Positions 7,948 through 13,900 of a stretch of 64,000 nucleotides of DNA are shown one piece after another (position 1 is the stretch's first letter; every line of letters starts with the position of its first letter). Location: assembly GCF_057098645.1 (NCBI RefSeq), contig NZ_CM169472.1; one strand, given 5' to 3'. A program made the position numbers.

Positions 7948-10900
7948 TTAAATATCGAGATAACGATCACAAAAACGACAATATGAAAATTGTTCGAGGA
8001 GTGAAAGGAAAAAAAACGGCCTCCCGATAGGGAAGCCGTAGCAAAGTGCGCGTGTTTTTATGCCGGATGCGGTGTAAACATACGTGGCAGTGCTATGTAG
8101 GCATGATAAGACGCTTCAGCGTCGCATCAGGCATAGGTTGCCGGATGCAGCGTAAACGCCTTATCCGTCCTACGGGGTGGTGTTGTTCGTATAAGGCGTA
8201 TCAGGCGATAGTAATTTTGCTATCGAGATAAACGTCCTGCACGGCGTTAATCAGTTTCACGCCGTCAGCCATCGATTTCTTGAACGCTTTACGTCCAAGA
8301 ATCAGCCCCATTCCGCCAGCGCGTTTGTTGATAACCGCAGTACGCACTGCATCACTGAGGTCAGTTTCACCGCCCGCAGCACCGCCGGAGTTTATCAACC
8401 CAGCCCGGCCCATATAGCAGTTAGCTAACTGATAACGCACCAGATCAATCGGGTTTTCGCTGGTTAACTTGCTGTACACGCGATCGTCGGTATAACCGTA
8501 ATTAATCGCTTTATAACCGCCGTTATTTTCCGCCATTTTCTGTTTGACGATGTCCGCGCCAATGGTCGCCGCCAGATGGTTCGCCTGACCAGTCAGGTCG
8601 GCGGAAACATGGTAATCAACGCCATCTTTCTTAAAGGCGGAGTTACGCAAATAGGCCCACAGCACTGTCACCATGCCCAGCTCGTGCGCACGTTCAAAAG
8701 CCGCAGAAATTTCTTCAATCTGGCGACGTGACTCTTCCGAGCCAAAATAGATAGTCGCACCAACCGCAACCGCGCCCATGTTGAACGCCTGCTCCACGCT
8801 GGCATACAGCGTTTGATCGTAGGTATTCGGGTAACTTAGCGTCTCGTTGTGATTAAGTTTGACGAGGAATGGAATGCGATGCGCATAACGCCGCGATACC
8901 GACGCCAGCACGCCGTAAGTTGACGCCACACAGTTACAGCCCGCTTCGATCGCCAGTTCAACAATGTTTTTCGGGTCAAAGTAGAGCGGGTTAGCAGCAA
9001 ATGAAGCTCCGGCAGAGTGCTCAACGCCCTGGTCAACCGGCAGAATAGAAAGATATCCTGTGCCAGCCAGACGCCCGGTGTTGTACAACGTCTGCATATT
9101 ACGTAACACCGCAGGCGGGCGATTATTGTCAATCATCACGCGGTCTACGTAGTCATGTCCGGGGAGATAAAGCTGGTCAGAAGGAATAGTCATACAACGG
9201 TGCTGTAAAAGGTTGTCGGCGTCTTTGCCAAGCAACTGCGCAATATCTGTCATTACTATGCTCCCGTAAATTCCGATTGGATATCGGCTATGGATTTTCC
9301 TGGCCCGCCTTTTGCGGGCAATCATAATCCTGGTCGTTACGGGCGAGTTTTTCCATCTTTTGGATGTTTTTTCAGCGTTTTCTGTTGGCTCGATTCATCA
9401 GAAAAAATGTTAGCGCGGTCAAGTTTTCACCGCAAAGGTATTTAAAAGGTATTATTAAGTGGTATTGTCATCGCGTACCTTACATTACCTGTCATGAAGG
9501 AATTAAAAGATGAAAACAACAGCAAAGCTGTCGTTCATGATGTTTGTTGAATGGTTTATCTGGGGCGCGTGGTTTGTGCCATTGTGGTTGTGGTTAAGTA
9601 AAAGCGGTTTTAGTGCCGGAGAAATTGGCTGGTCGTATGCCTGTACCGCCATTGCGGCGATCCTGTCGCCAATTCTGGTTGGCTCCATCACTGACCGCTT
9701 TTTCTCGGCGCAGAAAGTGCTGGCGGTATTGATGTTCGCAGGCGCGCTGCTGATGTATTTCGCTGCGCAACAGACCACTTTTGCCGGGTTCTTCCCGTTA
9801 CTGCTGGCCTACTCGCTAACCTATATGCCGACCATTGCGCTGACTAACAGCATCGCTTTTGCCAACGTGCCGGATGTTGAGCGTGATTTCCCGCGCATTC
9901 GTGTGATGGGCACTATCGGCTGGATTGCCTCCGGTCTGGCATGTGGTTTCTTGCCGCAAATACTGGGGTATGCCGATATCTCACCGACTAACATCCCGCT
10001 GCTGATTACCGCCGGAAGTTCTGCTCTGCTCGGTGTGTTTGCGTTTTTCCTGCCCGACACGCCACCAAAAAGCACCGGCAAAATGGATATTAAAGTCATG
10101 CTCGGCCTGGATGCGCTGATCCTGCTGCGCGATAAAAACTTCCTCGTCTTTTTCTTCTGTTCATTCCTGTTTGCGATGCCACTAGCGTTCTATTACATCT
10201 TTGCCAACGGTTATCTGACCGAAGTTGGCATGAAAAACGCCACCGGCTGGATGACGCTCGGCCAGTTCTCTGAAATCTTCTTTATGCTGGCATTGCCGTT
10301 TTTCACTAAACGCTTTGGTATCAAAAAGGTATTATTGCTTGGTCTGGTCACCGCTGCGATCCGCTATGGCTTCTTTATTTACGGTAGTGCGGATGAATAT
10401 TTCACCTACGCGTTACTGTTCCTCGGTATTTTGCTTCACGGCGTAAGTTACGATTTTTACTACGTTACCGCTTACATCTATGTCGATAAAAAAGCCCCCG
10501 TGCATATGCGTACCGCTGCGCAGGGGCTGATCACGCTCTGCTGCCAGGGCTTCGGCAGTTTGCTCGGCTATCGTCTTGGCGGTGTGATGATGGAAAAGAT
10601 GTTCGCTTATCAGGAACCGGTAAACGGACTGACTTTCAACTGGTCCGGGATGTGGACTTTCGGCGCGGTGATGATTGCCATTATCGCCGTGCTGTTCATG
10701 ATTTTTTTCCGCGAATCCGACAACGAAATTACGGCTATCAAGGTCGATGATCGCGATATTGCGTTGACACAAGGGGAAGTTAAATGAAAACAGAACGTAT
10801 TCTCGGTGCTCTTTATGGGCAGGCGTTAGGGGATGCGATGGGGATGCCCTCCGAGCTTTGGCCACGCAGCCGCGTTAAAGCACACTTTGGCTGGATTGAC

Positions 10901-13900
10901 CGTTTTCTTCCTGGACCAAAGGAGAATAACGCGGCCTGTTATTTTAACCGCGCCGAATTCACCGACGATACCTCGATGGCGCTGTGTCTGGCGGATGCGT
11001 TACTGGAACGTGAAGGCAAGATCGATCCGGATCTGATTGGGCGTAATATTCTCGACTGGGCGCTGCGTTTCGACGCCTTTAACAAAAACGTACTAGGTCC
11101 GACCTCGAAGATTGCGCTTAACGCCATTCGCGACGGTAAACCCGTTGCTGAACTGGAAAACAACGGCGTGACCAACGGCGCAGCGATGCGCGTCTCGCCA
11201 TTAGGTTGTTTGCTTCCGGCGCGTGATGTTGATTCCTTTATTGATGATGTAGCGCTGGCGTCCAGCCCGACCCATAAATCCGATCTGGCGGTTGCAGGCG
11301 CGGTAGTCATCGCATGGGCGATTTCTCGTGCCATTGACGGAGAAAGCTGGTCAGCGATTGTTGATTCCCTGCCTTCAATTGCGCGACATGCACAGCAAAA
11401 ACGCATCACTACGTTCAGCGCCTCACTGGCAGCGCGGTTGGAGATTGCGCTGAAAATTGTGCGCAATGCCGACGGCACCGAATCCGCCAGCGAACAGCTT
11501 TACCAGGTCGTTGGCGCAGGTACCAGCACTATTGAGTCCGTTCCGTGCGCCATTGCGCTGGTTGAACTGGCACAAACCGACCCGAACCGTTGCGCCGTCC
11601 TGTGCGCTAACCTTGGCGGCGATACAGACACCATCGGTGCTATGGCGACGGCAATCTGCGGCGCGTTGCATGGCATTAACGCTATCGATCCTGCGTTAAA
11701 GGCGGAGCTGGATGCGGTAAATCAGCTTGATTTCAACCGCTATGCCACAGCGCTGGCGAAATATCGTCAACAACGGGAGGCGGTATGAGCGGCGCTCGAT
11801 TACACACGCTGCTGCCTGAATTAACCACGCGTCAGTCGGTGATGGTCGTCGGCGCGGCGGTCATTGACGTGATCGCCGACGCTTATGCCCTCCCCTGGCG
11901 TGGGTGCGATATCGAACTGAAACAGCAGAGCGTTAACGTTGGCGGCTGCGCACTGAATATTGCCGTGGCGTTAAAGCGCCTCGGCATCGAAGCGGGTAAT
12001 GCCTTGCCGCTCGGTCAGGGCGTGTGGGCGGAGATTATTCGCAACCGGATGGCAAAAGAGGGCTTAATCAGCCTGATCGATAACGCCGAAGGTGATAACG
12101 GCTGGTGTCTGGCGCTGGTTGAGCCGGATGGCGAACGCACTTTTATGTCATTCAGCGGTGTGGAAAATCAGTGGAATCGCCAGTGTCTGGCGCGATTAAC
12201 CGTTGCGCCTAGCAGCCTGCTCTATTTTTCCGGTTATCAACTGGCCTCGCCCTGCGGCGAATTATTAGTGGAATGGCTGGAAAAGCTGCAAGACGTGACG
12301 CCGTTTATCGATTTTGGCCCACGTATTGGCGATATCCCGGATGCATTACTGGCGCGGATCATGGCCTGTCGACCTTTAGTGTCGCTCAATCGTCAAGAGG
12401 CTGAGATTGCCGCCGAACGTTTTGCTTTATCCGCAGAGATAACAACACTTGGCAAACAATGGCAGGAGAAATTTGCCGCGCCGTTGATCGTTCGTCTCGA
12501 TAAAGAAGGCGCATGGTATTTCAGCAACGACGCTTCTGGCTGCATTCCGGCATTTCCAACGCAAGTTGTCGACACCATTGGGGCGGGCGACAGTCATGCC
12601 GGTGGCGTACTTGCCGGGCTGGCCTCTGGTCTGCCACTGGCGGATGCCGTATTACTGGGCAATGCAGTGGCGTCGTGGGTTGTCGGGCATCGGGGCGGTG
12701 ATTGTGCGCCAACGCGCGAGGAACTACTCCTCGCACACAAAAACGTATAGATCGCTGCGACAGTGGCTAATGCTGTATTCAATAGGCCGTTGCTGTTGGT
12801 CAAGCGCCACTTGCTTGATCACCAGCACCGGTATTTTGCTATCTAACTGAATATGTGACTGAAACTCGGCATCTGGCATCCGGGCGCTAACGCGGGAACG
12901 CGTACGTTGTGGGTAAATGTGCTGGCTGCGGAAATAGTCATAAAGTGAAATCCCGATGGCATCAACATCATGAATTAAATGCGCCGGAACCCACGATTCC
13001 TCAATCGATACCGCTTCTTCATCGACATAGCGAATACGCTTAAGCAAAAAGACATCACTTCCTGCTTCGACCGCCAGCTGCTGCGCGACTTCTTCGGGAC
13101 ATTTCACGACACGCTTGTTAACCCATAGCGTATCGGGCTTTTTCCCGCGCAATACCACCTGCTGAGAAAAACCTCGCGCTTCTTTCAACGAGTATTCGAA
13201 GATGTTGTTGATCTGCGTGCCGTAACCGCGCGAACGCGTCACCACACCCTCTTCTTCCAGCGCCTGCATCGCCTTGCGCACCGTAATGCGCGAAACGCCG
13301 GTTAACTGACTTAAATCACGCTCACCGGGCAAAATATTGCCATGCTCCAGCACCCCGCTGCGCACGGCATTTTTTACCGTTTCGGCAAACTTAATATAAA
13401 GCGGCGTGTTATCCGCCGCTAAAATACGCTCGTTCAGTTGGGCAATCAGCTGGGTATGCGCTTGTTCCATTTGTCTTTTTCCTGCCGGGGAGTCTGGTGG
13501 GAGTATATCACTGCTTCTTATTTAAGGCGTTTCTTTAATCCCATCAACGAATGCCTGCAACTCCTCCACCGTGCCATTAAATACATTAAAATCCACCGGA
13601 CCATTGATGCCATCTACCTGTCCACGGTCGGAATGCTGCCAGAAGCGCCAGGCCATTCCGTCATTGTCCGGACGACGTTGATAGTAGTGAGCCACCCACC
13701 ACGGATATTCATTGAAATAGCCCGCCAGATTGGTGTGATAAAAAACGGCTCCTGAGTAAATAATCGGCTTTTTCCCCGTACTTTTTTCGACCATTTTTAG
13801 CCACTGACTTACCCGCTTGCGTAATTCTTTTGCCGATAATTTTCCCCGTTCTTCTACGTCCAGCACGGCAGGGAAATCGCCTTGTGAGAAATCCACCGTT

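Follow-up and report, generated by a model that had tools for sequence, protein, structure and literature searches.

What does the yegTUV operon of Escherichia coli take up, and what do its two enzymes do with it? This question is raised by a stretch of 64,000 nucleotides from contig NZ_CM169472.1 (NCBI RefSeq assembly GCF_057098645.1), here called the window, in which yegT, yegU and yegV encode a predicted importer, hydrolase and kinase and are followed by the regulatory gene yegW. The locus is the already described yegTUV operon of E. coli together with its repressor YegW (GgaR). Positions 9300-13600 of the window are 100% identical to several E. coli chromosomes. Of 5426 complete E. coli genomes, 5419 contain at least 80% of this region, which makes it a core locus. 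When the region was analysed, open reading frame (ORF) calls and Pfam gave the same gene identities and coordinates as an earlier sequence-only reading. In our view there is an even chance that yegTUV is a repressor-controlled module for the uptake and breakdown or salvage of a non-canonical riboside, in which the kinase would act before the hydrolase and three GGTATT repeats would form the GgaR operator. The riboside nature of the substrate, the order of the two reactions and their products are suggested by the sequence comparisons described below.

The earlier reading had regarded the substrate as not firmly established, and this still holds. None of the yegTUV genes has a clear function according to the study of their repressor (PMC10819704), the RefSeq names of the genes in this region remain generic, and the common ribonucleosides showed no significant binding to YegT (PMC11979927). 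No substrate assignment for yegTUV was found in the literature that could be reached. Searches by E. coli b-number or JW-number and by broader combinations (ribokinase/nucleoside/operon; nicotinamide riboside/ribazole) returned nothing relevant, and no paper was found that joins ADP-ribosylglycohydrolase with pfkB or with PnuC. Among protein-cluster names, every named YegU homologue is an 'ADP-ribosylglycohydrolase family protein'.

The three genes are closely packed. ATGA start/stop overlaps were read directly from the sequence at 10784 (yegT/yegU) and 11785 (yegU/yegV), exactly where translational coupling had been claimed, and a purine-rich, Shine-Dalgarno-like stretch lies immediately 5' of each start. 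The 4-nt overlap of yegT and yegU is kept in 17 of the 19 loci of Enterobacteriaceae and Pectobacterium in which this junction was called, and that of yegU and yegV in 17 of 20 such loci as well as in several Clostridia-type loci. The overlap between the 3' ends of yegV and yegW is exactly 27 nt in all 17 loci of the same group with yegW called. Since these junctions are conserved across loci, the yegTUV arrangement is more than a chance juxtaposition. That the three genes form a single transcript is confirmed by a 3.3-kb mRNA that was detected by both yegT and yegV probes; it was seen only in a ggaR deletion, in which yegTUV mRNA was increased about 30-fold (PMC10819704). The regulator, on the other hand, had been called divergent, and this has to be corrected: yegW is located beyond the 3' end of the operon and, being encoded on the other strand, is convergent with yegV, while the gene divergent from yegT is fbaB. 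In Vibrio the regulator is encoded on the same strand as the operon. Because the 3' ends of yegV and yegW overlap, no terminator is possible between these two genes, and the pair appears in a published list of convergent E. coli transcripts that overlap (excludons; PMC12288877). A terminator-like hairpin at 13420-13400 was disregarded as a chance match, as the scan counts were not above shuffle expectation.

The sequence-only reading had overlooked that the regulator is already characterised. YegW was renamed GgaR and described as a single-target repressor of yegTUV, with ADP-glucose as its effector in vitro (Saito et al. 2024, PMC10819704). The protein has the HutC-type GntR architecture, with a GntR domain at residues 29-87 (3.1e-16) and a UTRA domain at residues 108-242 (2.3e-36), and its nearest solved structure is YvoA/NagR of Bacillus subtilis. 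In electrophoretic mobility shift assays (EMSA) GgaR bound a 190-bp fragment upstream of yegT (probe-2) and more weakly, only at a higher GgaR amount, a fragment covering positions 571-869 of the yegT ORF (probe-5; 10080-10378 in the window); no GgaR binding motif or operator sequence was given in that paper (PMC10819704).

Each of the two fragments published as GgaR-bound contains one copy of a 38-nt repeat (Table 1). The upstream copy has the pattern GGTATT-N5-GGTATT-N7-GGTATT, and its three hexamers fall on the promoter spacer, the -10 element and the predicted transcription start, respectively. The two copies share 30 of 38 nucleotides; by comparison, the best match of the shuffled spacer to the yegT ORF had a mean of 22.0 identities (sd 0.97) and a maximum of 26 in 100 shuffles. 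The sequence GGTATTTAAAAGGTATTAT, located about 67 nt upstream of the yegT ATG, is conserved in more than 20 enteric loci, whose genera include Escherichia, Citrobacter, Enterobacter, Kluyvera, Pluralibacter, Mangrovibacter, Pectobacterium and Providencia, and the bases between and after the repeats vary. The Vibrio version consists of GGTATT-N5-GGTATT followed by an inverted ATACC. Within the 64-kb window GGTATT-N5-GGTATT, with up to one mismatch, occurs only upstream of yegT and at 10317, which fits a single-target regulator. The three GGTATT repeats are thus a candidate GgaR operator, and we infer from repetition, conservation and position that GgaR binds this exact motif. The intragenic copy encodes an invariant peptide, FGIKKVLLLG, and differs at synonymous sites among genera; as its resemblance to the upstream copy is partly imposed by the protein, it is less secure as a second site.

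The candidate sigma-70 promoter of the operon matches the consensus at 9 of 12 positions and was the sole promoter-like site that a consensus scan returned in the fbaB-yegT spacer. Counts in the promoter and terminator scan of 9200-13700 were at or below shuffle expectation, so that the scan alone is weak, and the site is called a promoter because of where it stands with regard to the conserved repeats: it lies within the 190-bp GgaR-bound probe (PMC10819704) and overlaps the repeats. As the -10 hexamer is located inside the second GGTATT repeat, promoter occlusion is the simplest reading of the repression, and GgaR would probably act by covering the yegTUV promoter. The best CRP-like site upstream of yegT was a match with three mismatches and was rejected, since such sites occur at chance level in the window (214 found, 226 expected). 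No separate yegW promoter was found in the consensus scan of 9200-13700. The neighbouring gene yegX, for a protein of glycoside hydrolase family 25, has the same orientation as yegW, and 51 nt separate its end from the start of yegW; therefore yegW might be co-transcribed with it.

To see which parts of the module travel together, we compared its gene context across genomes. A protein search with YegU against 1.84 billion representative proteins gave 234 hits at E <= 1e-30. Among the best of these were fusions of an ADP-ribosylglycohydrolase (ARH) domain with a PfkB kinase domain, both in the order ARH-PfkB (P0204, P0230, P0254, P0218) and in the reverse order (P0207, P0216, P0190, P0203). Another close relative of YegU (P0161, 692 aa) has two ARH domains in tandem but lacks a kinase domain. 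When genomes were scanned with an alignment of YegU homologues, 78 loci from many phyla were obtained, and a YegU homologue was called in 62 non-redundant ones. In 47 of these 62 loci a YegV-like kinase is encoded no more than three genes away. The fusions in both orders and this linkage support the view that YegU and YegV work together.

The importer is the exchangeable part of the module. A member of the NHS family, to which YegT belongs, is present in Enterobacterales and Vibrio. In 16 loci, including those of Aeromonas, Bacilli, lactobacilli, Dialister, Parasutterella and Chloroflexi, an NCS1 permease gene lies between the two enzyme genes, and in 11 loci of Clostridia and Lachnospiraceae a gene for a PnuC-family carrier lies 3' of the kinase gene; the two PnuC-family carriers that were scanned both scored above the TIGR01528 cut-off. 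The NHS, NCS1 and PnuC families each include riboside carriers. A YegW-like GntR regulator often adjoins the module. In a Pfam census of 115 same-strand neighbours no recurrent enzyme family was found beyond the transporters, the next commonest families being amidohydrolase and AP_endonuc_2 with three loci each; neither a glg or glycogen family nor an ADP-ribosyltransferase was among the recurrent ones. As judged from gene neighbourhoods, the conserved unit is a hydrolase, a kinase, an importer from any of several riboside-carrying families and a repressor, which supports the import and processing of a ribosyl compound.

Individual loci showed additional genes. On a metagenomic contig (L005:6001-10115) the genes for an ARH hydrolase, a PfkB kinase and an NCS1 permease are followed by one for a DeoD-type purine nucleoside phosphorylase (358 bits, above the cut-off); in no other locus was the module followed by a classical nucleoside enzyme. 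In Vibrio profundi (L027:9047-10321) and V. fortis (L028:8893-10236) an extra gene of the major facilitator superfamily (MFS) is found between yegUV and the gene for the YegW-like regulator. The V. profundi protein reached 430 bits with the SfMCT L-lactate/monocarboxylate transporter model (cut-off 320), a hint that the released aglycone may be an exported monocarboxylate.

The residues of YegV are informative for the order of the reactions. YegV is a PfkB protein (191.8 bits) with the ribokinase-like fold and motifs; its AlphaFold 2 model has a predicted local distance difference test (pLDDT) score of 93.9, and Foldseek TM scores to ribokinases reach 0.86. We aligned YegV with 49 kinases that are encoded beside YegU homologues. 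In these 50 sequences G54, N58, N202, E205, G266, G268 and D269 show no variation and G53 and A267 almost none; accordingly, the Asp that binds the 2',3'-diol (YegV D28), the GG pair, the counterpart of Asn46, the NxxE motif and the catalytic GAGD motif, which YegV shares with the ribokinase RbsK, are invariant or nearly so. Other ribokinase residues are replaced. Lys43 of RbsK is Cys in 48 of the 50 kinases (Cys55 in YegV), a hydrophobic residue (V, F, I, M or L) replaces Asn14 in all of them (Val26 in YegV), and Glu143 is Ala154 in E. coli YegV. The YegU-YegV fusion proteins show the same pattern. Asn14 is one of the ribose contacts of ribokinases (PMC9604405), and Lys43 and Glu143 are strictly conserved in ribokinases, where they occupy the space of the nucleobase (PMC7797080). 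Their loss in YegV fits a riboside kinase that acts before the hydrolase. In line with this, the score of YegV with the ribokinase model TIGR02152, although its best NCBIfam hit, is far under the cut-off (83.5 bits vs 299.65); other hits were to pseudouridine kinase (19.5 bits, cut-off 540) and, partially, to fructoselysine 6-kinase (42 bits). On the basis of these residues YegV is not a canonical ribokinase, and we propose that it is a riboside 5'-kinase.

YegU covers 285 of the 287 positions of the Pfam profile PF03747 (225 bits) and has the all-alpha ARH fold (AlphaFold 2 model, pLDDT 96.7). The nearest solved structure in Foldseek was MJ1187 (1t5j; TM 0.82/0.90), and ARH3 and DraG gave TM values of 0.73-0.88. 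The ligands of the two metals, T60-D61-D62-T63 and D280-x-D282-T283, are invariant or nearly so in 23 homologues, and E24 aligns with Glu41 of ARH3, the catalytic glutamate of the Glu flap. YegU thus has the fold, two-metal site and Glu flap in common with ARH1, ARH3, DraG, Tri1 and MJ1187. In contrast to these enzymes it shares its locus with a kinase and an importer, not with an ADP-ribosyltransferase, and it differs from ARH3 in that the adenine-stacking residues Phe143 and Tyr149 are Asn126 and Val129. As adenine binding differs between the ARH classes, the absence of this pair excludes an ARH3-like mode only. From the literature on residue roles in these enzymes, the cis 2'',3''-diol of the ribose binds the two metals, and all characterised ARH substrates are riboses esterified at 5'' to phosphate (PMC7050489). 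The latter fits a 5'-phosphoriboside as the substrate of YegU.

YegT scored 655 bits with TIGR00889 (cut-off 446), which places it among the 12-helix MFS proton symporters of the NHS family. The protein is identical to the one in PDB 8ZOJ except for the engineered substitution K267A in the latter, a structure determined at 3.1 angstrom (PMC11979927). NupG and XapB belong to the same family and have the same ribose-binding triad and GxxxD protonation site, at about 27% identity to YegT. In an alignment the ribose contacts R136/T140/E264 of NupG are kept as R131/T135/E255, and G311-D315 of YegT aligns with G319-D323 of NupG, the GxxxD site of transmembrane helix 10. The contacts to the base, however, are changed, and isothermal titration calorimetry with uridine, adenosine, cytidine and guanosine showed no significant binding to YegT (PMC11979927). 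In these two respects YegT differs from NupG and XapB, and the retained ribose contacts fit its prediction as an importer of a riboside.

Taken together, the following pathway can be proposed. The substrate would be a ribose that bears an aglycone other than the four standard bases. YegT would bring this riboside in by proton symport, and YegV would phosphorylate its 5'-hydroxyl. YegU, a two-metal hydrolase with the ARH fold, would then cleave the C1' bond of the 5'-phosphoriboside to give ribose 5-phosphate and the free aglycone. GgaR would keep the operon nearly silent by binding the three GGTATT repeats over the -10 element and the transcription start together with the weaker copy in yegT, and would leave the DNA upon binding of its effector. 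We favour phosphorylation as the first reaction because of the YegV residues, the 5''-phosphoester nature of ARH substrates and a precedent in Salmonella that is described below.

Other explanations have to be weighed against this pathway. The sequence-only reading had suggested cleavage followed by phosphorylation; YegT would import a riboside, YegU would cleave it to the aglycone and ribose, and YegV would phosphorylate the released sugar. The import and processing of a ribosyl compound is supported by the comparative gene context, whereas this order is less likely given that nearly all YegV-like kinases lack Lys43, and we regard it as an unlikely course of events. The gene order T-U-V speaks for it, as do the ribokinase model being the best NCBIfam match of YegV, if far below its threshold, and the presence of ribokinases among the closest folds. 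Glu143 is also retained in 13 of the 50 YegV-like kinases, and there are YegU loci without an adjacent kinase: in Edwardsiella hoshinae (L031), Serratia marcescens (L033) and E. ictaluri (L034) a YegU homologue with 63-65% identity is found beside phoP-phoQ together with a YegW-like regulator and with no adjacent kinase or transporter gene. Such an arrangement fits a hydrolase without a dedicated kinase and does not fit a self-contained uptake operon. Against cleavage as the first step are the replacements of Lys43 and Asn14, the absence of Glu143 from E. coli YegV and the 5''-phosphoester substrates of known ARH enzymes; moreover, E. coli already has a ribokinase in RbsK. The retained Glu143 and the kinase-free loci also count against our own proposal, as do three further points. 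Comparison of folds with Foldseek gave similar results for ribokinases, MjNK, BthNK and AIRs kinase and so did not discriminate between them for YegV. Characterised ARH enzymes prefer alpha-1'' linkages (PMC7050489), as opposed to the beta linkage of ordinary nucleosides. Finally, the only reported effector of GgaR is ADP-glucose and the only reported phenotypes concern glycogen, neither of which is directly explained by a riboside.

These last observations could be taken to mean, as was suggested when YegW received the name GgaR, that the operon acts directly in ADP-glucose or glycogen metabolism. GgaR would sense ADP-glucose, and the three proteins would import, form or convert this compound or a close relative, thereby raising glycogen. 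In gel shifts with the spacer probe, 10-100 uM ADP-glucose released GgaR from the DNA, while glucose and ADP did not; high glucose raised yegTUV mRNA about 3-fold in a GgaR-dependent manner; and a ggaR mutant had two to three times more glycogen and grew poorly on minimal glucose medium (PMC10819704). In one screen on KM-ADPG plates, deletion of yegV scored as glycogen-deficient (PMC6195507). We nevertheless rank this explanation lower than the riboside pathway and consider it improbable. The effector set comprised three compounds only, and induction by glucose was about 3-fold compared to about 30-fold in the ggaR deletion, so that the full inducer of GgaR may be another compound. No reaction has been proposed that ties YegT, YegU or YegV to ADP-glucose, minimal glucose medium holds no external ADP-glucose for import, and an ARH enzyme that hydrolyses ADP-glucose would lower glycogen rather than raise it. 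In addition, homologous modules use NCS1 or PnuC carriers and, in the neighbour census, have no recurrent glg genes. Because the ggaR mutant also grows poorly in minimal medium, its extra glycogen could be secondary and result indirectly from slow growth, overproduction of a membrane protein or off-target activity of the overexpressed enzymes. Least probable of all, and by our estimate hardly to be expected, is that YegU serves for genuine de-ADP-ribosylation in the manner of DraG, ARH1 or ARH3 and would act on a modified protein or on free ADP-ribose derivatives next to loosely related neighbours. Its ARH fold, complete metal site and catalytic glutamate would allow for this. However, its scores with the NCBIfam equivalog models are far below the cut-offs (DraG 79 bits vs 337, Tri1 68.5 bits vs 490), the stacking pair of ARH3 is replaced, YegU is tightly linked or fused to a small-molecule kinase and accompanied by importers, and ADP-ribosyltransferases are not among the recurrent neighbour families.

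Within the proposed riboside pathway a more far-reaching interpretation of YegU can be considered, which we hold only tentatively and to be somewhat less probable than its opposite. YegU would be the founding member of a branch of the ARH family with a metabolic role and, as a glycohydrolase of small-molecule 5'-phosphoribosides, would act after a dedicated kinase, YegV, on an unusual riboside; in that case ADP-glucose would only weakly imitate the true inducer of GgaR, and the effect on glycogen would be indirect. The substrate would be a riboside outside the range of ordinary nucleoside hydrolases and phosphorylases, possibly one with an alpha linkage or a poor leaving group, and a cobamide lower-ligand riboside, a pyridine riboside and a purine-pathway riboside are candidates. 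If so, the module would be spread in Proteobacteria, Firmicutes, Actinobacteria and Chloroflexi from the gut and the environment behind three unrelated importer families. More generally, if the riboside model is correct, the ARH fold gains a metabolic role outside protein de-ADP-ribosylation. Identification of the substrate would show whether the link to glycogen is direct, and would close a gap in the list of E. coli genes of unknown function, as yegT, yegU and yegV are core genes.

In its design yegTUV most resembles three known systems. In psuK-psuG-psuT (yeiC-yeiN-yeiM) a nucleoside importer is combined with a PfkB kinase that forms the 5'-phosphate and a glycosidase that acts on the nucleotide to give ribose 5-phosphate. 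The logic is the same as that proposed for yegTUV, with the kinase first. In psuKGT, however, cleavage is by an IndA-like glycosidase instead of an ARH-fold enzyme, and uptake is by a transporter of the NupC type; YegV, as mentioned, is far from the pseudouridine kinase model. In the fructoselysine operon frlABCDR an importer and a PfkB kinase are combined with an enzyme that cleaves the phosphorylated conjugate and with a repressor of the HutC type. This operon and other GntR/UTRA-controlled operons for uptake, phosphorylation and cleavage have the same design as yegTUV and differ from it in substrate class and cleaving enzyme. Compared with psuKGT and frlABCDR, yegTUV would use an ARH-fold enzyme where those modules employ other cleaving enzymes. 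The third system is STM4065-4066-4067 of Salmonella Typhimurium, the precedent referred to above, in which STM4066 is reported to be a kinase active on aminoimidazole riboside and STM4067 a putative ADP-ribosylglycohydrolase (PMC3161100). As described, a PfkB-type riboside kinase and an ARH-family protein are combined in one operon as in yegUV. The likeness is one of description, and STM4065-4067 is distinct from the Salmonella counterpart of yegU, an orthologue with 84-88% identity that is present in addition. An STM4067 mutant was attenuated in the pig intestine (PMC3161100); this Salmonella analogue contributes to persistence in the pig gut. The closest system of all is yegTUV/ggaR of E. 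coli K-12 (PMC10819704; PDB 8ZOJ, PMC11979927), which is the same locus and shows no difference in sequence features. The single transcript, the repression, the two binding regions, the release by ADP-glucose in vitro and the structure of YegT were thus established by others. Added here are a candidate operator that is conserved among enteric genera, the observation that YegU and YegV are linked or fused across phyla, the exchange of transporters and the active-site patterns.

Table 1. Coordinates of genes, candidate regulatory sites and RNA features in the window
Feature	Position	Strand	Size	Basis or remark
yegT	9510-10787	+	425 aa	ORF call; Pfam Nuc_H_symport (PF03825), 3.5e-184
yegU	10784-11788	+	334 aa	ORF call; Pfam ADP_ribosyl_GH (PF03747), 2.1e-66
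yegV	11785-12750	+	321 aa	ORF call; Pfam PfkB (PF00294), 2.3e-56
yegW (ggaR)	12724-13470	-	248 aa	ORF call; Pfam GntR, 3.1e-16, and UTRA, 2.3e-36
yegV/yegW convergent 3'-end overlap	12724-12750		27 nt	ORF coordinates
Candidate sigma-70 promoter of yegTUV	9426-9455	+		-35 TTCACC 9426-9431, 18-nt spacer, -10 TATTAT 9450-9455
Candidate primary GgaR operator	9437-9474		38 nt	Three direct GGTATT at 9437-9442, 9448-9453 and 9461-9466; repeat and conservation
Candidate secondary, low-affinity GgaR site in yegT	10317-10354		38 nt	GGTATC-N5-GGTATT-N7-GGTCTG; repeat match, within EMSA probe-5
yegX	13522-14349	-		
fbaB	8201-9325	-	374 aa	Longest ORF
naRNA4 (RF02564)	8100-8170	-		64.5 bits; REP-derived nucleoid-associated RNA, just downstream of fbaB
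thiD	14405-15205	-		Two genes beyond yegW
thiM	15202-15990	-		
Thiamine pyrophosphate (TPP) riboswitch (RF00059)	16025-16121	-		71.2 bits, gathering score 54.3; just upstream of thiM-thiD
OrzO-P antitoxin small RNA (RF02083)	35083-35158	+		Full-length match, 99.9 bits

The remaining features of Table 1 surround the operon. Further away, the match to the OrzO-P RNA suggests a zor-orz type I toxin-antitoxin locus, a system described in O157-type strains rather than in K-12, so that the window probably stems from an E. coli other than K-12. For fbaB the longest ORF is given; the FbaB protein has 350 aa and starts with MTDIAQLL, which corresponds to position 9253, and with this start the fbaB-yegT spacer measures 256 bp instead of 184 bp. 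There is no yegX next to yegW in Citrobacter, Kluyvera, Pluralibacter and Mangrovibacter, where yegW is directly followed by two ORFs on the minus strand, one of 266 and one of about 260 aa; these were taken as thiD and thiM from their size match with the genes in the window.

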